Below, piece after piece: positions 1,267-58,982 of a DNA stretch of 64,000 nt. The stretch is from contig JAJEFA010000001.1 in the NCBI GenBank assembly GCA_022820725.1, positions 182,749 through 246,748 of the forward strand, given 5' to 3'. The notes below the pieces were generated by a model that worked only from the letters and a program-made list of their open reading frames with translations, was not told where the DNA came from and searched no databases. Source of the DNA: Candidatus Binatia bacterium. GTDB taxonomy: Bacteria; Desulfobacterota; Binatia; Bin18. Within the stretch, counting starts at the first letter, position 1. Each line of letters starts with the position of its first letter. The translations under genes and the position numbers were made by a program.

Positions 1267-1398
1267 CGGCACAGCCCAGGACCCGACCCTTCCCGAGACG
1301 TGGGATGCATATTGTGTCGATTGCTCCCTCCGGGCCGGCCGGTCGCGCCCTCACCCGGCCCTGCGGGCCACCCTCTCCCAGGGGGCGAGGGTAAAAGA

Positions 1399-1426
1399 GT
1401 AGGGACGACCGGCCGGTCGCCCCTAC
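1399..1426. repeat. REP-like 28-bp palindrome GTAGGGaCGACCGG|CCGGTCGCCCCTAC (one arm mismatch), between the convergent PABS/TPR gene and ispG
   Basis: Seen directly in the sequence. Belongs to the GTAGGGGC...GCCCCTAC palindrome family also found at 3800-3882, 10706-10733, 55000-55027, 57250-57277 and 57317-57344. Confidence 0.6.
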
Positions 1427-2924: not shown

Positions 2925-3803
2925 ATGGGTGCCCAGATCGTCAAAGGCAGGGTCATCGCCCAGTCAGTGTATACGGAACTTGAAGCGGAAATTTCAGGGT
3001 TGATCCAGCGCACCGGACGAAGACCCGTCCTGGTCAGTATTTATATCGGCTCGAACCCGGCTATCGAAGTCTATATTCGATCCATGAATCGGATTGCCCG
3101 GGGGTTGGGGATTGAGTATCGCTGGTACCATCTCCCGGACAATGCCCAAGAGGCTGAGGTGCTGCGTCGTTTGGAGCAGCTGAACCAGGACCCTGAAGTC
3201 ACCGGCGTGATTATTCAGCTCCCCCTGCCTGAACATGTCCGCCGCTCGGTTCTGGTCAACCATATTGCCCCACAAAAAGATGTGGACGGCACCCATCCGG
3301 AAAATGTCGGGGCCGCCGTCACCGGAGAGATACGGATTGGCTCCTGTACCGCCCTGGCCGTCATGCGCCTTTTGGACGCAACCGGGATCGACATGGAAGG
3401 GAAAGAGGCGGTTATTGTCGGACACAGCGACCTGGTGGGGAAGCCGCTCAGCCTGATGCTGGTCGATCGCTTAGCCACCGTGACCATCTGCCATATCGCG
3501 ACCGCTCAGCGGGGGCTGTTAGCCGACCATGTCCGTCGGGCAGAGGTCCTCGTTGTGGCCGTCGGTTCTCCTGGGTTGATCAAGGGCGACTGGGTTCGCC
3601 CTGGGGCAGCCGTGATCGATGTTGGCATCAATCAGGTGGGCTCACGCCTCGTCGGCGATGTGGAATTTGACACGGCCAAAGAACGCGCCGCATTTATTAC
3701 GCCGGTTCCGGGCGGTGTCGGACCGGTGACAGTGTCGATGCTCATGAACAATACCGTCAACGCCTTCCGTACCCAGGTGGGACATCTGTCCGAAGCGAAG
3801 TAG
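2925..3803 (+). CDS. folD: Bifunctional methylenetetrahydrofolate dehydrogenase / methenyltetrahydrofolate cyclohydrolase (FolD)
   Basis: 292-aa ORF with ...VLVSIYIGSNPAIEVYIRSMNRIARGLGIEY..., GHSDLVGKPLSLMLV and VTICHIATAQ motifs typical of FolD. The stop codon TAG (3801-3803) is supplied by the left arm of a REP palindrome. Confidence 0.9.
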   Translation: MGAQIVKGRVIAQSVYTELEAEISGLIQRTGRRPVLVSIYIGSNPAIEVYIRSMNRIARGLGIEYRWYHLPDNAQEAEVLRRLEQLNQDPEVTGVIIQLPLPEHVRRSVLVNHIAPQKDVDGTHPENVGAAVTGEIRIGSCTALAVMRLLDATGIDMEGKEAVIVGHSDLVGKPLSLMLVDRLATVTICHIATAQRGLLADHVRRAEVLVVAVGSPGLIKGDWVRPGAAVIDVGINQVGSRLVGDVEFDTAKERAAFITPVPGGVGPVTVSMLMNNTVNAFRTQVGHLSEAK

Positions 3804-3882
3804 GGGCGGCCCTTGTGGCCGCCCAGGGCATGGCACATAGGGTCAACCTTCCAAGCCGGGCAACCACAAGGGTTGCCCCTAC
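3800..3882. repeat. Composite REP-like element GTAGGGGC-[GGCCcttgtGGCCGCCC ... GGGCAACCacaaGGGTTGCCC]-CTAC between the convergent folD and PDZ genes; likely bidirectional terminator/insulator
   Basis: Outer arms match the GTAGGGGC/GCCCCTAC family. Two internal hairpins (8-bp stems). A half-site ACGTCGCCCCTAC follows at about 3913-3927. Confidence 0.5.
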
Positions 3883-3971
3883 CGCGAATAATCTGTGACC
3901 CGCATCCTCGACAACGTCGCCCCTACACGGCCTTCACAATCTCAAATCCCATACTGCCTATAAGGACGGAT

Positions 3972-10705: not shown

Positions 10706-10733
10706 GTAGGGGCAATTCATGAATTGCCCCTAC
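10706..10733. repeat. REP-like 28-bp perfect palindrome GTAGGGGCAATTCATGAATTGCCCCTAC
   Basis: Seen directly in the sequence, 23 nt downstream of the aminotransferase stop. Same outer arms as the family; different palindromic core. Confidence 0.6.
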
Positions 10734-51421: not shown

Positions 51422-53746
51422 TCAGAGTGCCCTCTCACGCAGCAAGCGCCGTTTGAGACGATTTTTCAGGGAAAGCAGCCACGGACGGTTGGTCTTGAGC
51501 AGGGCGGTATAGAGCGGCAAGAACATCCGGCGGACCGAAAAATACAGCACCGTCCGCCAGGAGTGGCCGTACGCGGCCACAAGATGGGCCGGAATCAAAC
51601 GCGTTCCTTGCTCTTGCCCGGCGCCCTGCTCCCGTTCCTGCCACAGCCAGTCCGTCACCGTCGTGATCCGCAGATACTCCACCGCCTGCGTTGCACAGGC
51701 GCGTCCGAGACCGAGACCGGGAACCGGCGCGGTGGCCGCTGCCCGCTCCTGCCGTGCGGCTTCACAGGCCGCCAGAACGGTATCGGTCATCTGCTCCAGC
51801 CGGAAGTAATCCTCAATACGCTGGCGCCCCTGTTGGCCCATGCTCTTGCGCTGCTCCGGCTCGTCCAGCAGTCGGGCCAGAACGGTCGAATACTGCCGGG
51901 CTTCGTCTTCTTCCGATCCACGGCCGATCAACACCCCGCATTCAGGCGTGACCAGCTCACGCTGTCCGCCCACGTCAGCCCCCACCACCGGCACTCCGCA
52001 GGCCAGGGCCTCATAGACCGAAAGCGCGATCCCCTCCCACTCCGAGGGCAGAAAGAAAATATCCGCCGCGGCCAACAGGTCCCGAATATCCGTATTGGAC
52101 AACTCCCCGACAAGACGGACCCGCCGTTCCAGCCGGTGCTTGCGGACAAAGGACTTGAGCCAGGCAAAATCCGGCCCGTCGCCGGCAACCACTAACACGA
52201 AATCAGTGTCGCCCCGGGCAAGGCGCAGCGCGGTCTGCGCCAGAACCTTCGGTTGCTTTTGGGCGCACACGCGCCCGACAAACACAATCAGCGGCGTTGA
52301 TTCGGCAATGTCGTAGTGCCGGCGGGCACGGCGGCCCCGCTCGGCGTCGGGCCGCCAGGAGTCGGCGTCGATATTCGTATGACACACCTGGATCGCATCC
52401 GGGTTGGCGCCGCGGGCCGCCATCCAGGCTTTCAGATGCTCCGACGACACCAGGCTGCGGTCAAGCGTTTCCTGATAGGTGACCGACATCTGCGGATAGC
52501 CGCCGTTCTTCCACGCCTCTTCCTCAATATGGCAAAAATCGAGCAGGGGCAGCTTTGGAAAATGCGCCCGCAGATAGGGCAGGAGCTGGTAGCCGAACTC
52601 GCTGTGCGAGACGAGCACCGCGTCCATCTCCCGGCTGTGGATGAGAGAGCGCACAAAGCGCGGATAATCCGCGGGCCGCAGAAAACGGTGCAGGAGAAAA
52701 ATATCGGGGGTCAGGCGGGCAAACTGGGCCAGCCAGGGATGATCGCTACTGAGCGTCGTCGCTATGCTCACCTCCCAGCCGCGCCGGACAAGCTGGCCGA
52801 GCAGATCCAGGTTGAACTTGTCCGACCCGCCCATAGCCAGCCACGGCACGATCAGCAGCAGACGCGGCTTTTCCTTGTGGAGTTTGTTCTCCCACGGGAG
52901 GGTATCGGACACGGTTTCATACGGCGCGAGCGGCGCGGCCTGGGGAGTGGGAAAATCCTCCCAGAGGCGCGGGTAGCGCTGGCGCATTTTTTTCCGAAAG
53001 GCATCCTCGCGCTTCCCGCCATCCCAGTTGTCCCAGCGGTCGCCGTGATTCTCGCGGCGGCGGTACCAGTCGAGATATTCCGGCAGCGTCGTGCCCCAAT
53101 GGCCCTCACTGGCGCAGTGCAGCCAGAAGTCCCAGTCTTCCAGCCCGCCCCGGATCGTTTCGTCATAGCCGCCGACGGCGGTATGCACGCTGCGGCGCAC
53201 CGCGCCGGTGATGTCCACCAGGTTCTGCTCCAGGAAGACCCCCCCGTTGTGGAAGCCCTGCTCCCACAGGTACTCGCTGGCGTCAAAGCCGACCGAGTAG
53301 CCCTTCACAAAGGCGAATTCGGGATAGGACTCCAACAGCCAGACCCATTTTTCTATGGCGGTCGGCTCCAGCAGATTATCCGTATCGAGCTGGACGACGT
53401 ACTCCGCACGCGCGGCCCGGTACGCGGTATTGCGTCCGGCGCTGGGCCCCTGGTTGACCTCGTGGTCAATTACCCGAATCCGGGGGTCCGTGTTGCGGTA
53501 GGAGTCGAGAATAGCCAGGGCCTCCGGGTTGGTCGAGCCGTCGTTGACGATAATCCACTCCCACTGCTGGAAGGACTGCCGCAGGACGGACCGCGCCGTG
53601 TCATGAAAAATCGCGCCGGTGTTGTAATACGGCGTCACGATGGTCACCGCCGGCGGGACGCTCGGGTCAATCGGACGATAAGCATAGACCGGACGCCGGT
53701 CCGAGGCCGGCGTATTCGTATAATCGGGACTGTTGGGATCAATCAT
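51422..53746 (-). CDS. Bifunctional glycosyltransferase, N-terminal GT2 plus C-terminal GT4 domains
   Basis: GT2 domain: VTIVTPYYNTGAIF...IIVNDGSTNPE...VQLDTDN. GT4 domain: ...LIVFVGRVCAQKQPKVL...IFFLPSEWEGIALSVYEALACGVPVVGADVGGQRELV. Confidence 0.8.
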   Translation of the reverse strand: MIDPNSPDYTNTPASDRRPVYAYRPIDPSVPPAVTIVTPYYNTGAIFHDTARSVLRQSFQQWEWIIVNDGSTNPEALAILDSYRNTDPRIRVIDHEVNQGPSAGRNTAYRAARAEYVVQLDTDNLLEPTAIEKWVWLLESYPEFAFVKGYSVGFDASEYLWEQGFHNGGVFLEQNLVDITGAVRRSVHTAVGGYDETIRGGLEDWDFWLHCASEGHWGTTLPEYLDWYRRRENHGDRWDNWDGGKREDAFRKKMRQRYPRLWEDFPTPQAAPLAPYETVSDTLPWENKLHKEKPRLLLIVPWLAMGGSDKFNLDLLGQLVRRGWEVSIATTLSSDHPWLAQFARLTPDIFLLHRFLRPADYPRFVRSLIHSREMDAVLVSHSEFGYQLLPYLRAHFPKLPLLDFCHIEEEAWKNGGYPQMSVTYQETLDRSLVSSEHLKAWMAARGANPDAIQVCHTNIDADSWRPDAERGRRARRHYDIAESTPLIVFVGRVCAQKQPKVLAQTALRLARGDTDFVLVVAGDGPDFAWLKSFVRKHRLERRVRLVGELSNTDIRDLLAAADIFFLPSEWEGIALSVYEALACGVPVVGADVGGQRELVTPECGVLIGRGSEEDEARQYSTVLARLLDEPEQRKSMGQQGRQRIEDYFRLEQMTDTVLAACEAARQERAAATAPVPGLGLGRACATQAVEYLRITTVTDWLWQEREQGAGQEQGTRLIPAHLVAAYGHSWRTVLYFSVRRMFLPLYTALLKTNRPWLLSLKNRLKRRLLRERAL

Positions 53747-56267
53747 TTTTTCTACTCTGGCCGGCTACTTTGGCCGGAAATTCCTGAACCGGCTTGACCA
53801 GTTTCAAGCGGGTGCCCAGGCGGCCCCACCAGCTCTGCTGCCAGTGGCGTGTCTGCGCCTGCCAGTGTTCAGTCTGTTCTTCGTGCTGCCGGGCAATCTT
53901 CTCCCAGTTGTTGCGCTGTTCTTCCATCCACGCCCTGGCTTTCTCCAGCTCGCCGATCCACGCCTGCTGCTCCTGCACCATACGTTCTCGTTCCTCCGCC
54001 TGGGTCTGCCAGTTCGTCCGCTGCGCTTCCAACCACGTTCTGCCTGTTTCGAGCTCCTCTATCCAGCCCTTGAGTTCCCGAATGAAGGTATTCTGGGTCT
54101 CGACCACGTTGCGCCAACTGGCCTGCTGGCCTTCCAGCCAGACTTTCCCGCGCCGGAGTTCCGCGGTCCACTGCCGCAGCCTGACCAGCGCGTCGAACGC
54201 TTCTTCAAGGACCGGGCCGTCGGCGTGCGGTCCCCGCTCCCGGTACAACCGGAGGCCGCGGCGGGCGGCGGTGGTTATTTCCTCCACCCCGCGCTCGAAT
54301 TGGTAGGCGTGCGAGGCATTAGCGCCGTGCCAGCGATAGCGCACCAGGGGACGCGCCAGAAAGCCCACCCGATACCTCAGGCACAGCCGGAGCCACATGG
54401 CATAGTCACAGGCAAAGCCCAGGTCCCGGTCGAACCCGCCCTGTTCGATGAGCGCGCGGCGGCGGGCCAGGACGGTCGGCGCGCACACCCGGTTGCCGTT
54501 GAAGAGCAGGGTCCGAAAATACTCCGGCCCGTCCCAGACCGTGTCGTCGGTCGCGTCCTCAATCCAGTCGGCAAACGCGCTTGGCGCCGACTCCTCGACC
54601 AGCGTTTCCACCCCGGAATGGACGAAACCGACGGTTTCGTCCGCGCTCAACACCTGGACCTTGCACTCCAGATTTTCGGGCAGCATCACATCGTCCTGAT
54701 GAAAGAGACACACAAACGCTCCACCGGCGAGTTCGAGACAGCGGTTCCAATTGGCCGGGATACCCAGCCGCTCCGGGTTGCGGTGCAGCTGTATTCTCGG
54801 GTCGGAAAAGGATTGAACAATATCGAGCGTGGCGTCGGTTGAGCCGTCGTCAACAACCAGGAGTTCAAAATCCTGATAGGTCTGGTGCAGGATGCTGCGC
54901 AGCGCCGCTTCAATATACTTCGCCCCGTTATACGTGGGCAGACAGACGCTCACCGCGCGGGCCGATGTCGGTCGCGGCCTCTCCTCACCCGCCGGGAGAG
55001 TAGGGGCGACCGGCCGGTCGCCCCTACTTGCTTCCGTTGGTCTATCCCGCACGGCCTCATACACGGCCTCCATATCCTGCGCGTACGCCTGCGGGTCTCG
55101 GATGGGTGTCGAGGCTGGCGTGAGCTGTTGACGCAACCGGGTATCGGTCCGCAGCCGCTCCAGGCAGCGCCCCAGGTCGTCGGCGTTCTCGGGTTCAAAC
55201 AGCAGGCCGTTCACCCCGTCCCGAATGACTTCGGGCAGGGCGCCGCGCCGGGCGGCAATGACCGGCAGGCCGGCCTGAAGGGCCTCTCGCGTGACCAGCG
55301 AAAAGGTTTCCTCGCACACGCTGGGCACAACCAGCACGTCGTGCCGGGCCAGAATCGCACTCAATTCGTCGTGGGCATAGGTGCCGCAAAAACGAATGGG
55401 CAGGCCGGCCGCGTCCGCCTCCAGTCGGTCGGCATAGGCGCGCCGGTCCGCGGCCCGCTCACCGTACAGGGAGGCGGCAAAACTGCCGGCCGGCACACCG
55501 TGTACGGCCTGGATCAACAGATGCGGGCCTTTATGCGGCACCAGCGCACCGATATACAACACCCGCATGGGCTGCCGGTCGTCCCGGCGTCCATATGGGA
55601 TAGGCACGACACCGGGGGCCAGGACCTGGAGACGCGGTTCCACAAAAGGAAAAATCTCCTGCATCCTCTCGGCCAGAAATCGGGACGGAACAATGACCCG
55701 CTGTGGCATATGCAGGAGTTGTTCAAAATAGGCAAAGCGCCGGCGGGCCTCCTCCGCAGTCGTCTCCGCCTGGAGGCAGGCAATACAGCGCTCGCCCCGG
55801 TCCGGTCCCGGACACAGCCGGGTGTGGTTGTCTATCAGGTGGATGCGGGCGCAGGCAAAAAAGAAGTCGTGCAGGCTGAGCACGACCGGATAGCCGAGCC
55901 GGGCCGAGGTCCGGAGTACGCTCCCGGACAGATGGATGACGTGCTGAACGTGCACGACATCGGGACGCGAGTCGGTCAGTATCCGGTGGAACGCCTCGTC
56001 GAGAAACGGATGGTCATACTCCAGGCGAAAATGTGAGGCATGGCTGAGAGTGTTGACCACCCGCACGACGCGCACCCCTTTGTGTCCGCTGACAGCCGGC
56101 GCATCCTCCCGCACCGAGCATTCCTCGGCAGCGGGGTCGGTGGTCCGGGCAAAGACCGTCACCGCATGGCCTCTCTGGGCGAGCGCCTGAGCCAGGGTTG
56201 CGGTAACGAGTTCCGCCCCACCCCACTTCTCGGGCGGATAGCCGTGCACGACCTGGAGAATACGCAT
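53739..56267 (-). CDS. Trifunctional-architecture glycosyltransferase: GT4 domain - linker containing a REP palindrome - GT2 domain - C-terminal W-rich coiled-coil repeats
   Basis: GT4 domain: MRILQVVHGYPPEKWGGAEL...CGTYAHDELSAILARHDVLVVPSVCEETFSLVTREALQAGLPVIAARRGALPEV. GT2 domain: VSVCLPTYNGAKYIEAAL...LLVVDDGSTD. C-terminal region: about 35-aa repeats WLEGQQASW...WIEELETGR / WLEAQRTNW...WIGELEKAR / WMEEQRNNW.... 8-nt overlap with the downstream GT2-GT4 gene. Confidence 0.8.
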   Translation of the reverse strand: MRILQVVHGYPPEKWGGAELVTATLAQALAQRGHAVTVFARTTDPAAEECSVREDAPAVSGHKGVRVVRVVNTLSHASHFRLEYDHPFLDEAFHRILTDSRPDVVHVQHVIHLSGSVLRTSARLGYPVVLSLHDFFFACARIHLIDNHTRLCPGPDRGERCIACLQAETTAEEARRRFAYFEQLLHMPQRVIVPSRFLAERMQEIFPFVEPRLQVLAPGVVPIPYGRRDDRQPMRVLYIGALVPHKGPHLLIQAVHGVPAGSFAASLYGERAADRRAYADRLEADAAGLPIRFCGTYAHDELSAILARHDVLVVPSVCEETFSLVTREALQAGLPVIAARRGALPEVIRDGVNGLLFEPENADDLGRCLERLRTDTRLRQQLTPASTPIRDPQAYAQDMEAVYEAVRDRPTEASRGDRPVAPTLPAGEERPRPTSARAVSVCLPTYNGAKYIEAALRSILHQTYQDFELLVVDDGSTDATLDIVQSFSDPRIQLHRNPERLGIPANWNRCLELAGGAFVCLFHQDDVMLPENLECKVQVLSADETVGFVHSGVETLVEESAPSAFADWIEDATDDTVWDGPEYFRTLLFNGNRVCAPTVLARRRALIEQGGFDRDLGFACDYAMWLRLCLRYRVGFLARPLVRYRWHGANASHAYQFERGVEEITTAARRGLRLYRERGPHADGPVLEEAFDALVRLRQWTAELRRGKVWLEGQQASWRNVVETQNTFIRELKGWIEELETGRTWLEAQRTNWQTQAEERERMVQEQQAWIGELEKARAWMEEQRNNWEKIARQHEEQTEHWQAQTRHWQQSWWGRLGTRLKLVKPVQEFPAKVAGQSRKND
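55000..55027. repeat. REP-like 28-bp perfect palindrome GTAGGGGCGACCGGCCGGTCGCCCCTAC located in-frame inside the GT4-GT2 linker (encodes SRGDRPVAPT)
   Basis: Seen directly in the sequence; identical to the copy at 57317-57344 and nearly identical to 1399-1426. Confidence 0.6.
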
Positions 56268-56274
56268 AGGCCGT

Positions 56275-57264
56275 TTATTTCTGTTTTATGCTCTCCTGTA
56301 AAGAAATCCGCCGTACCAGGGAGGGCGCCAGGCTCTGCTTGCGTTCGCCGAGCCAGGTGCCCCATAGTGCCGCAAGATGCCAGGCCAGGGCCAGGGCCCC
56401 CCAGCGCAGCCCGACCCGCAGCCGTCCCCGGTGTGTGAGCCAGCGCCAGAACGACAGGTCCCGGCGGGCGGCGCGCCAGGCTGTTGACGGCGTACGGCCC
56501 AGGCACAGACTGGAGGCCGCATCCAGATCGCTCAGCGCGCGGGCATGATCGAAATGCCGCCGGAAATTGGGCCAGGGGCCATACCCGTGGGAATGGTACA
56601 CCAGCGAATCGGCCCGATAGGCGGTCTGATAGCCGGCCTCAAGCACCCGCCTGGCCCACAGCTGGTCCTCGGCGAATTCCACCTCGGGGAAAGGGTGTTG
56701 CTGCCATACGCTGCGGCGCAACACCGAACTGACGTTCGAGAAAAAAGAAAAAGGAGCCGGATTGTCGGCATAATCGGGGGCGGCGCTGCTGTTCAGGCAG
56801 GATTCCGCCCGGCCCGACAGCTCGTCTTCAACAATGCGCCGCCACTCCATGGGGTGACAGTGCGGGCGGGGGAGATGGCGGCTATACGCCCCGGCAATGG
56901 ACGAATCGGCCCGGAGGGGGGCCAGCAGCGCGTCCAGCCAGTCGGCATTGGCGGGAGTCGCGTCCTGGGTCAGAAACACCAGATAGTCGCCCCGCGCGTA
57001 GCTTGCGGCCAGATTGCGGGTTTTGCCGTGGCCGAACTCCTGGGGCGGGATCCGTATGACGCGCACCGTGTGGGCCGCAAGAATGGCCAGGGTGTGATCG
57101 CGCGAACCGGAATCCACGGCAATGATCTCGTCGAGTTGAAAGCGGCCCCGTTGTTGACCGATACGGTCCAGCACTTCGGCCAGATAGCGCGCGCCGTTTT
57201 TTGTGACCAGGAGAACGGATATACTTGGCAGATCGGTCATAGCGTCTGGGTAGGGGCGACGCAT
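56275..57264 (-). CDS. GT2 glycosyltransferase (rhamnosyl/galactosyl-transferase-like)
   Basis: ISVLLVTKNGARYLAEVL...IIAVDSGSRD...VFLTQDA motifs. Track start ATG (57264) is the centre (GCATGC) of a REP palindrome whose left arm (AGGGG) lies at Shine-Dalgarno distance. An alternative start is the MTDLPS Met at 57240. Confidence 0.75.
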   Translation of the reverse strand: MRRPYPDAMTDLPSISVLLVTKNGARYLAEVLDRIGQQRGRFQLDEIIAVDSGSRDHTLAILAAHTVRVIRIPPQEFGHGKTRNLAASYARGDYLVFLTQDATPANADWLDALLAPLRADSSIAGAYSRHLPRPHCHPMEWRRIVEDELSGRAESCLNSSAAPDYADNPAPFSFFSNVSSVLRRSVWQQHPFPEVEFAEDQLWARRVLEAGYQTAYRADSLVYHSHGYGPWPNFRRHFDHARALSDLDAASSLCLGRTPSTAWRAARRDLSFWRWLTHRGRLRVGLRWGALALAWHLAALWGTWLGERKQSLAPSLVRRISLQESIKQK

Positions 57265-57277
57265 GCGTCGCCCCTAC
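57250..57277. repeat. REP-like 28-bp perfect palindrome GTAGGGGCGACGCATGCGTCGCCCCTAC
   Basis: Seen directly in the sequence; overlaps the 5' end of the GT2 gene. Confidence 0.6.
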
Positions 57278-57316
57278 ATCCCCTCTCGGGCTGGGTGATG
57301 TTCATTGTGTCGTGAG

Positions 57317-57344
57317 GTAGGGGCGACCGGCCGGTCGCCCCTAC
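57317..57344. repeat. REP-like 28-bp perfect palindrome GTAGGGGCGACCGGCCGGTCGCCCCTAC
   Basis: Seen directly in the sequence; 40 nt from the previous copy, between the GT2 start and the methyltransferase stop. Confidence 0.6.
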
Positions 57345-57354
57345 TCCCCAGCCG

Positions 57355-58188
57355 TCAGGCTTTTGTCTTGCGGCACACAATCGCGGCATTGTCGGGCCGT
57401 GCCCACATGCTGTTGATGGCCTCATTGGCTCCCTCCGCCCAAGTGGTCACTGCTTTTTGCTGCGCTTCCATCTGCTGCCGGAGGCGTGCTTCCAGGGCCG
57501 GCAGGTCCGCAGCAGGCACGAGTCGCAACCGGCGCAGGAGTCGAAAATACCCGGCCCGGAGTTTCTCTTTCAGCCAGCCTCTGGGCCGTGGGGGCCGGTC
57601 CCGGCCCGCCTCCACGGCCTGCGGCAGGACGAGCGGCGCCAGCAGATGGGGCACGTCCTCACGGTTGGTGTGTATCACCTCAAGGCCGGCGTGCCGGCAG
57701 ACCGCCTCAAGCAGCTCGGGATGATAGAAACGGACGTGCTCGGGGTCACGCCAGAAGCCCAACAACTGCATGCGGATGGATTCGGGGTTGGGTACGACGA
57801 TCACCACGGTGCCCGCAACGCTGACGCGAGGCGCAAGGAGTTCAAAAAACCGCAGCACCTGCTCAAAGGGCAGATGCTCCAGAAAATGCGAGCAAAAGAC
57901 CCCGTCATAGGTCTCGGTCGTCTGCTCCAGAAAGGCGAAGACATCCTGCTCGACAATATCCCAGCCGTGCTGTTTCACCCAGGCCACCACCGTGGGATTG
58001 CGTTCAACCCCGAGCGCGGGAATGCCGTGCTCGGCCAACAGTTCCAGGAAAATGCCCGAGCCGCAGGCCAGGTCCAGCACCTTGTGACACCCCCGAAAAT
58101 GGGCCACATAGCCGCTCTGCATCTCCCGGTTCCGCTGCCGGTCGCGCAGCGTGAATTCATACTCGGCGTAGTCGAAGCGAGCGGCCAC
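57355..58188 (-). CDS. Class I SAM-dependent methyltransferase (candidate O-polysaccharide terminal methyltransferase)
   Basis: Motif I VLDLACGSGIFLELL and ...VFCSHFLEHLP...GTVVIVVPN. Start placed at GTG (58188) behind AGAGGA, 11 nt after the wzm stop. The upstream part of the 470-aa track ORF lies in a different frame over wzm and is rejected. Confidence 0.6.
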   Translation of the reverse strand: MAARFDYAEYEFTLRDRQRNREMQSGYVAHFRGCHKVLDLACGSGIFLELLAEHGIPALGVERNPTVVAWVKQHGWDIVEQDVFAFLEQTTETYDGVFCSHFLEHLPFEQVLRFFELLAPRVSVAGTVVIVVPNPESIRMQLLGFWRDPEHVRFYHPELLEAVCRHAGLEVIHTNREDVPHLLAPLVLPQAVEAGRDRPPRPRGWLKEKLRAGYFRLLRRLRLVPAADLPALEARLRQQMEAQQKAVTTWAEGANEAINSMWARPDNAAIVCRKTKA

Positions 58189-58199
58189 CGCGTATCCTC

Positions 58200-58982
58200 T
58201 TAGAGATAATCGGCAAAAAATCCCCGGCAGCGTCCAAAGGCATACCGGCCAAACCAGAAGAGCCCGACCGCCCAGCAGACGCTGTACGCCAGCGCGCCGC
58301 CCAGGTTCAGACTGCCCGACAGGATAATCGAGCGATAGCCATCGGTAATCGCCACCATCGGGTTCAGGAGAAACAGCACACCGATGGATTCCGGGATGAG
58401 GCTGGCCGGATACAGAATCGGGGTCAGAAAAAACCACAGCGTAAACCCGGCGGTGGCGAGCTGTTCGACATCCCGAAAGAAGACATTGCCGCAGGCGAGC
58501 AGCATGCCCAGCCCGGTCGCCAGGAGCAGCGCCAGACCCAGGGGCAGGCACAGCAACAGCCCGACCCCGCCGATGAACGTGCCTTTCCACACCATCAGCC
58601 CGAGCAGGAACAGCAGGAACCCGACGCCCTGCACCAGAAAGCTGGCCAGCACCACCGCCACGACCAGCAGTTCCGACGGAAATTGCAGCTTCTTCACCAC
58701 ATTGGCGTTGTTGGTGATGGCCGTCACCGAGCGCAGGCAGGCCTCCTGAAACGCCAGCCACGGCCACAGGCCACAGAACACAAACTCGGCAAAGCCGTGC
58801 CCGCCCTCAATCTCGCCCACCCGGTAAATCGCCGAGAACACCATGGTGTATAGCCCTAACAGGATGGCCGGCTGGATCAAGGACCACAGGCCGCCCAGAC
58901 TCGTACCGGCAAAACGCGCGCCGATCTCACGCCGGACCATGGTCACCAGGAGATAGCGATGGGTCGTCAGGGTGGTAAACAT
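58200..58982 (-). CDS. wzm: ABC-2 type polysaccharide export permease (Wzm/KpsM-like)
   Basis: 260 aa, 6 TM helices, N-terminal ...YLLVTMVRREIGARFAGTSLGGLWSLIQP... typical of ABC-2 permeases. Confidence 0.75.
   Translation of the reverse strand: MFTTLTTHRYLLVTMVRREIGARFAGTSLGGLWSLIQPAILLGLYTMVFSAIYRVGEIEGGHGFAEFVFCGLWPWLAFQEACLRSVTAITNNANVVKKLQFPSELLVVAVVLASFLVQGVGFLLFLLGLMVWKGTFIGGVGLLLCLPLGLALLLATGLGMLLACGNVFFRDVEQLATAGFTLWFFLTPILYPASLIPESIGVLFLLNPMVAITDGYRSIILSGSLNLGGALAYSVCWAVGLFWFGRYAFGRCRGFFADYL

Follow-up and report, generated by a model that had tools for sequence, protein, structure and literature searches.

The REPs described so far that come closest to the repeats considered here belong to two overlapping groups. 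The first consists of the REPs associated with subclass 2.4 of TnpA_REP (RAYT). They have a canonical long form, whose foot consists of three G-C pairs, and a "double foot" form that carries GT[AG]G at its 5' end and C[TC]AC at its 3' end, and that was proposed to arise from an inverted dimer by central deletion; REPs inside tnpA_REP genes were also reported (Quentin et al. 2018, PMC6006769). The second is the superfamily of GTAG-tagged REPs (Di Nocera et al. 2013, PMC3733652), which are found mostly between convergent or co-directional ORFs, near 3' ends, and whose termini provide TAG stop codons. Some of these lie wholly within ORFs, where they are thought to be neutral in flexible linkers, while those that apparently lie in N-terminal coding sequence are mostly attributed to misannotation; insertions of REPs into small target palindromes are on record as well (PMC3733652). 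Gene loss is also known in REP-bearing genomes.

We analysed a stretch of 64,000 nucleotides from a Candidatus Binatia bacterium, called here the window, together with orthologous loci from Candidatus Binatia MAGs, identified by numbers preceded by the letter L. The palindromes of the window are very probably copies of a GTAG-type family of REPs, the 28-mers being of the double-foot form: one copy is a passenger in the linker of a glycosyltransferase, another donated the stop codon of folD, and two more occupy the leader of a GT2 gene and are not its start. The features are collected in Table 1.

Table 1. Repeats of the window and the genes that they touch.
Feature	Positions	Strand	Remarks
Double-foot REP, one mismatch	1399-1426		intergenic, between convergent ORFs; C-type palindrome alongside at 1371-1391
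folD (292 aa)	2925-3803	plus	tail ends ...SEAK, then the REP TAG
Canonical GTAG REPs, head-to-head dimer, REPIN-like	3800-3882 (units 3800-3824 and 3858-3882)		TAG at 3801-3803 is the folD stop
Decayed REP head GTAGGGGCGACG	3915-3926	minus	belongs to the inserted cluster that separates folD from the convergent PDZ gene
Double-foot REP variant, centre AATTCATGAATT	10706-10733		intergenic
Glycosyltransferase (842 aa)	53739-56267	minus	GT4/GT1 at residues 15-384 and GT2 at 440-674 (Pfam); C-terminal coiled coil
Degenerate C-type palindrome (CTCTCC...GGAGAG)	54978-54999		adjoins the REP; encodes LPAGEER; common to most orthologues
Double-foot GTAG...CTAC REP, perfect 28-bp palindrome GTAGGGGCGACCGGCCGGTCGCCCCTAC	55000-55027		in-frame in the GT4-GT2 linker; minus-strand reading SRGDRPVAPT
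GT2 gene, corrected start MTDLPSISVLLVTKNG... (321 aa)	56275-57240	minus	about 28 orthologous 5' ends aligned
Double-foot REP, perfect palindrome, centre GCATGC	57250-57277		5' leader, 9 nt upstream of the corrected GT2 start
Double-foot REP identical to 55000-55027	57317-57344		stop of a methyltransferase ORF 10 nt upstream of the REP

The window has 5 occurrences of the motif GTAGGGGC-N12-GCCCCTAC, whereas shuffling predicts 0.03; the 12-mer head GTAGGGGCGACC, taken with at most one mismatch, occurs 11 times against 0.48 expected. This excess of repeats is not due to chance. There are 7 REP sites in the 64 kb, far above chance, and 6 of the 7 are intergenic. The ends GTAG...CTAC are present in all five 28-mers, and the foot of the double-foot stem is made of three consecutive G-C pairs (GTAG-GGG...CCC-CTAC), with a G+C-rich hairpin predicted. 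The centres of the 28-mers in the window are self-complementary (GACCGG/CCGGTC, GACGCA/TGCGTC and AATTCA/TGAATT), as are the centre GAAAAA/TTTTTC of the relatives' 28-mer and the centre GCACGG/CCGTGC; stem variants differ by compensatory changes. For the dimer at 3800-3882, one long hairpin is predicted (z = -4.3). Only one of the three frames of the 28-mer contains a stop, namely the frame that reads the TAG of GTAG. Since the palindrome of the linker is also present in independent assemblies of relatives, L001 and L003, it is not a sequencing artefact.

A second kind of repeat, the C-type palindrome, is not significantly enriched in the window, where there is one match and 8 of 100 shuffles do as well, and it is the copies in other loci that justify regarding it as a repeat family. 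The copy at 54978-54999 is the older component of the GT4-GT2 linker. GTAG REPs adjoin C-type palindromes in this linker, at 1371-1426, at 57250-57295, and in L014 and L021.

The association of the repeat with a transposase comes from other metagenome contigs. The exact 28-mer was found in at least 120 metagenome stretches, on contigs whose GC content ranges from 37% to 72%. Of 130 metagenome copies, 11 form an in-frame part of RAYT-like genes, between the HuH and Tyr motifs, and another 3 abut the 5' ends of genes of this kind, which brings the copies inside or adjoining RAYT-like genes to 14/130. The RAYT-like ORFs match the NCBIfam family NF047646, "REP-associated tyrosine transposase", with E = 2e-16, a match below the equivalog cut-off, and are recognised by NCBIfam and not by Pfam at strict thresholds. 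Among 120 database homologues of the RAYT-like transposase, the corresponding loop almost always reads VGATGRSPL, VGAHGRAPL, RGDRPVAPT or similar, and in one case that was checked the coding sequence is GTAGGGGCGCACGGCCGTGCGCCCCTAC, which differs from the palindrome by compensatory changes. The same 28-mer is also found in-frame in CarB, LeuS, a Ser/Thr kinase, an adenylate cyclase-ATPase and a periplasmic binding protein, and both open frames of the palindrome are used among these other proteins. A motif scan of the window revealed no RAYT gene, and a tblastn search with a RAYT-like protein against all fetched Binatia loci found none. Because the window is without such a gene, we can only infer that the repeats were mobilised by a RAYT in this organism.

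At folD, the stop codon is the TAG at 3801-3803, which belongs to the REP head GTAGGGGC at 3800-3803, as the sequence-only reading had proposed, and the comparison with relatives bears this out. The closest FolD relatives end in ...AFRTQVGHLPEHPGEHPVD (298 aa) or similar, against ...GHLSEAK in the window; with a tail reading ...GHLPEHPGEHPVD, and no REP cluster, their folD terminates six codons later. On their contigs, folD and the convergent PDZ-domain gene are only 3 nt apart. When the DNA of the window is aligned to that of the relatives, the two match up to ...CTG YCY GAA and diverge exactly at the start of the REP cluster; the two become homologous again where the PDZ gene ends, after about 165 nt that comprise the REP dimer and the decayed REP head. 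These 165 nt or so of REP cluster were therefore inserted where the two convergent genes meet, into the 3-nt gap and the 3' tail; the insertion removed the last, non-conserved, codons of folD, and the TAG built into the REP head became the new stop. This explains the short tail of folD. Since the C-terminal tail of FolD is variable across homologues, its loss would be expected to carry no functional cost.

At the GT2 gene, a similar reading of the repeat does not hold. The ORF 56275-57264 has its first ATG, on the minus strand, at 57264, in the centre GCATGC of the palindrome at 57250-57277. The sequence-only reading correctly described this palindrome and the annotated ATG within it, and proposed in addition that the REP supplies the start codon, with its arm AGGGG as Shine-Dalgarno sequence. 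This last proposal fails on three counts. An ATG (or GTG) at window position 57240, nine codons downstream of the REP ATG as we count them (57264 versus 57240), is kept in more than 20 of the approximately 28 aligned orthologous 5' ends, whatever lies upstream, and it opens the conserved N-terminus MTDLPS.../MTxxPxVS, MT(D)LPS. L005 has the identical REP, but there a reading that began at the REP ATG would meet an in-frame TAG before reaching the conserved ATG. Finally, the predicted REP hairpin takes up both the REP ATG and AGGGG in its loop and stem. For the entire leader with its two REPs, the fold has z = -4.5, and in L001, L002 and L023 a DUF433/DUF5615 toxin-antitoxin pair stands upstream of GT2 in place of the REPs. 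On the aligned 5' ends, the REP ATG at 57264 is an artefact of ORF extension: the two REPs belong to an intergenic leader, the ATG at the centre of the palindrome merely lengthens the mechanical ORF, and translation proceeds from 57240. The annotated start should accordingly be moved from 57264 to 57240.

We now turn to the copy inside the glycosyltransferase. The palindrome forms residues 414-423 of the 842-aa ORF, reading ...TEASRGDRPVAPTLPAGEE..., so that the position first given for it, in-frame between the GT4 and GT2 domains and read as SRGDRPVAPT, is correct. In an AF2 model that is modest overall (mean pLDDT 63), residues 408-438 of the linker are coil with pLDDT of about 30, and residues 386-435 lie below pLDDT 50. 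The length and sequence of the linker are hypervariable across all homologues. At the DNA level, among 20 Binatia orthologues, the window, L001 and L003 have the REP at exactly the same position, and L004 has a decayed copy; the remaining orthologues have a different sequence at that position. At the protein level, among the homologues listed, the REP peptide is present only in P0001 (95% identity), P0003 (85%) and P0067, a partial sequence, with a decayed form in P0015. Where alleles without the REP, such as L027, have about 14 nt, the window has 26 nt in their place, which makes it 12 nt longer according to sequences read by eye. The idea that the 14 nt replaced were a decayed, converted half of a REP was set aside, as the similarity seen on inspecting the alignment is unconvincing.

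A REP copy thus became part of a disordered, hypervariable linker in a GT4-GT2 fusion that had long existed. It is read in one of its two stop-free frames, so that it adds only a decapeptide rich in Pro, Gly and Arg and is tolerated. The linker REP is a passenger in a permissive linker, in agreement with the second option of the sequence-only reading, that of a REP tolerated between the domains; its insertion was presumably neutral, as presumably were the others.

How the REP came to be shared by some orthologues is less simple than a single vertical insertion, since the gene tree does not unite the REP-bearing orthologues in a clade (0/100 bootstraps) and makes L003 the sister of the REP-free L005 in 100/100 bootstraps. 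This polyphyly could mean that the linker is a hot spot that REPs entered independently at the same position, perhaps targeted to the C-type palindrome; the repeated proximity of GTAG REPs and C-type palindromes mentioned above, and the published insertions within small target palindromes (PMC3733652), point in the same direction. However, the three REP-bearing alleles also have identical flanks, ACGGAAGCAAG upstream and CTCTCCCGGCGGG downstream, and the GT4 and GT2 halves of the gene have incongruent nearest neighbours. Because of these two observations, one insertion spread by homologous recombination is the simpler account, and we favour it over repeated site-specific insertion, on the evidence of the alignments and trees, while regarding the hot spot as rather unlikely. 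The local identity profile of the window and L003 around the REP has no decisive peak that would mark a recombinant patch.

Other palindromes occupy the same linker in other lineages. The palindrome GTAGGGGCGAAAAATTTTTCGCCCCTAC is in-frame in the linker of L021, and L014 has a near-copy; L002, where it is tandemly expanded, L005, L023 and L008 have CCCTCTCCCAGNGGGAGAGGG, of which nearly all other orthologues, including the window at 54978-54999, retain a decayed form; and a unit CCCTTCGACTGGGCTCAGGACAG is present in L021, L008 and L024. Copies of the CCCTCTCCCAGNGGGAGAGGG and CCCTTCGACTGGGCTCAGGACAG types also exist outside the gene, for example at 1371-1391 in the window, and at L077 876, L023 11034 and L005 11790. 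One may go further and conjecture that the linker was largely built, and repeatedly remodelled, by mobile palindromic repeats, with at least four families in-frame across lineages, the C-type palindrome acting as a landing pad and the hairpin perhaps playing a role at the mRNA level. We hold this stronger version to be doubtful; if true, the linker would show, in a natural case, how selfish hairpins supply and diversify interdomain linker sequence.

The conservation of the palindrome raises the question of function. Between the window and L003, the linker palindrome is identical at 28/28 positions while the genes are 85.6% identical, for which the naive chance is about 0.86^28 = 0.015. All three REPs common to the two loci are identical, including the two upstream of the GT2 gene, and the REP-bearing intergenic stretch is 97-98% identical. 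Such perfect conservation may point to constraint or gene conversion more than to pure neutrality, and could come from selection on the hairpin, gene conversion among copies, or recombination. If selection is the cause, the linker hairpin, for which a 13-bp stem is predicted, would function in RNA or DNA, as a ribosome pause between domains, in processing or stability, or in protein binding. This is quite improbable: most orthologues have an unrelated sequence in place of the REP, the copy of L004 decayed without loss of the ORF, the fold of the linker in its context is unexceptional against shuffles (z = -1.6), and gene conversion or recent recombination would equally predict perfect conservation.

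The fusion of the two glycosyltransferase domains is older than the repeat. A search of the protein collection gave 497 matches, the best 120 of which span 95% to about 45% identity; almost all of these 120 are 800-1200 aa long and have both the GT4 and GT2 Pfam domains. Since the GT4-GT2-coiled-coil architecture recurs in more than 100 homologues, down to about 45% identity, the fusion is old. Whether they carry the REP or not, all full-length homologues have the fusion, so the comparison with REP-free orthologues that had been suggested yields the same architecture in the absence of this REP. A search for split GT4 and GT2 orthologues among the homologues found none; P0119 (543 aa), considered as a candidate, was rejected, as it is a clean deletion of the GT2 domain that joins the linker to the coiled coil. 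That the REP joined two neighbouring genes into a bifunctional enzyme, an idea drawn from its place exactly between the domains and from a GTG just downstream that might be a former start, is almost certainly wrong, given these fused homologues, most of them without this REP, given the clean deletion that accounts for the one short form, and given that the GTG is GTC in L003, L004, L027 and others. It would be a mistake to interpret the GT4-GT2 protein as a fusion made by a REP.

These results matter chiefly for annotation: that of the GT2 start, of the GT4-GT2 protein and of the short folD tail. In a wider view, the locus gives a clean and comparatively documented example, from an uncultured phylum, the Binatia, of GTAG REPs that truncate gene tails and donate TAG stops. 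It is also an example of REPs tolerated in disordered linkers, in which sister lineages fill the same linker with different palindromic repeats. These loci leave the current understanding of REP and RAYT biology unchanged, as can be seen by setting them beside the systems already described.

Rickettsia palindromic elements (RPEs) are likewise selfish palindromic repeats tolerated in-frame in unrelated proteins, but they are about 100-150 bp long, belong to other families and reside in reduced intracellular genomes, whereas the repeats here have 28 bp and are of the GTAG type. The REPIN/RAYT systems of Pseudomonas and E. coli (BIMEs) likewise contain inverted pairs of REPs that form a long hairpin, as at 3800-3882; they differ from the window in the RAYT subclass and in the REP sequence, and the window has frequent single double-foot units. 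Closer still are the subclass 2.4 double-foot REPs (PMC6006769), whose ends (GT[AG]G and C[TC]AC) and foot of three G-C pairs agree with those seen here, and which coexist with canonical dimers as they do here at 3800-3882, and find a parallel in the exact 28-mer inside or beside RAYT-like genes in metagenomes; however, no tnpA_REP gene was seen in the window, and Candidatus Binatia is not among the taxa discussed in that paper. The GTAG-tagged superfamily (PMC3733652) has an unpaired tag, whereas here GTAG is base-paired with CTAC in the double foot, but its behaviours are those seen in the window: a TAG stop, a copy in a linker, and an apparent N-terminal copy due to misannotation. As all three are published, the co-option of repeats into translation signals, which had been called notable, loses weight. 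The Binatia copies are a new instance of a class of REPs, and of behaviours, that were already described: real but ordinary.

The two halves of the 842-aa GT4-GT2 glycosyltransferase gene (window 53739-56267, minus strand) have different nearest relatives: against L004, a Binatia locus, for instance, the GT2 half is 93% identical and the GT4 half less than 81%. On these sequence comparisons, the disagreement between halves indicates a putative recombination event within the gene, with a breakpoint near the linker that carries the perfect 28-bp REP palindrome (the 28-mer). In one Binatia genome, the orthologue P0119 (543 aa, 75% identity) has its entire GT2 domain cleanly deleted, from linker to coiled coil; its gene adjoins a 982-aa full-length paralogue, whose linker contains a perfect C-type (CTCTCC...GGAGAG) palindrome.

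Homologues of the 842-aa protein range from about 790 to 1213 aa. Its C-terminal coiled coil (residues about 700-842) consists of W-rich repeats, WLEGQ..., WIEELE..., WLEAQR..., and differs by two 7-residue indels from that of the 95%-identical relative. The next gene downstream shares 8 nt with the end of the 842-aa gene, stop codon included; it too encodes a bifunctional glycosyltransferase (774 aa), but with the domains in the opposite order, GT2 before GT4. Two REPs separate the methyltransferase gene from the GT2 gene in the window; L001, the 95%-identical relative, carries a DUF433/DUF5615 toxin-antitoxin pair in their place, as do L002 and L023. The methyltransferase ORF, a mechanical call of 470 aa, probably begins too far upstream; its L001 orthologue has a called length of 277 aa, and the 5' portion of the ORF overlaps an ABC-2 permease ORF.

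In a metagenome scan (L079-L198), contigs with the identical 28-mer have GC contents from 37% to 72%, and the 28-mer lies in frame in varied proteins; it is therefore a single REP sequence common to very different genomes. Exact copies also lie in frame within genes for RAYT-like Y1 transposases (RAYT, REP-associated tyrosine transposase), as does a compensatory variant in L199. The site is between the HuH and Tyr motifs, and both open frames are used, one or the other per gene. Loop peptides of the VGATGRSPL or VGAHGRAPL type occur in about 100 of 120 database homologues of the transposase.

Coordinates of the features discussed
Feature	Locus	Position
Coiled coil, 842-aa protein	window	53739-54200
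774-aa glycosyltransferase	window	51422-53746
Two REPs	window	57241-57354
Toxin-antitoxin pair	L001	4334-5001
Methyltransferase ORF	window	57355-58767
ABC-2 permease ORF	window	58200-58982
P0119 gene	L078	5001-6632
C-type palindrome, 982-aa paralogue	L078	3458-3478
Small palindromes beside REPs	window	1371-1391, 54978-54999, 57280-57295
RAYT-like gene, in-frame 28-mer	L086	1631-2173
RAYT-like gene, in-frame 28-mer	L153	3214-3861
Further RAYT-like genes, in-frame 28-mer	L080, L084, L097, L119, L123, L162, L164, L183, L197	
28-mer variant, RAYT-like gene	L199	1783-1810
In-frame 28-mer, CarB	L137	
In-frame 28-mer, LeuS	L152	
In-frame 28-mer, Ser/Thr kinase	L141	
In-frame 28-mer, cyclase-ATPase	L110	
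In-frame 28-mer, binding protein	L082	

A REP inside the transposase gene, between the HuH and Tyr motifs, agrees with a published feature of RAYT subclass 2.4 (PMC6006769). In the window, GTAG REPs repeatedly adjoin short CCCTCTCC...GGAGAGGG-type palindromes, a pairing reminiscent of reports that certain REPs insert into small target palindromes.
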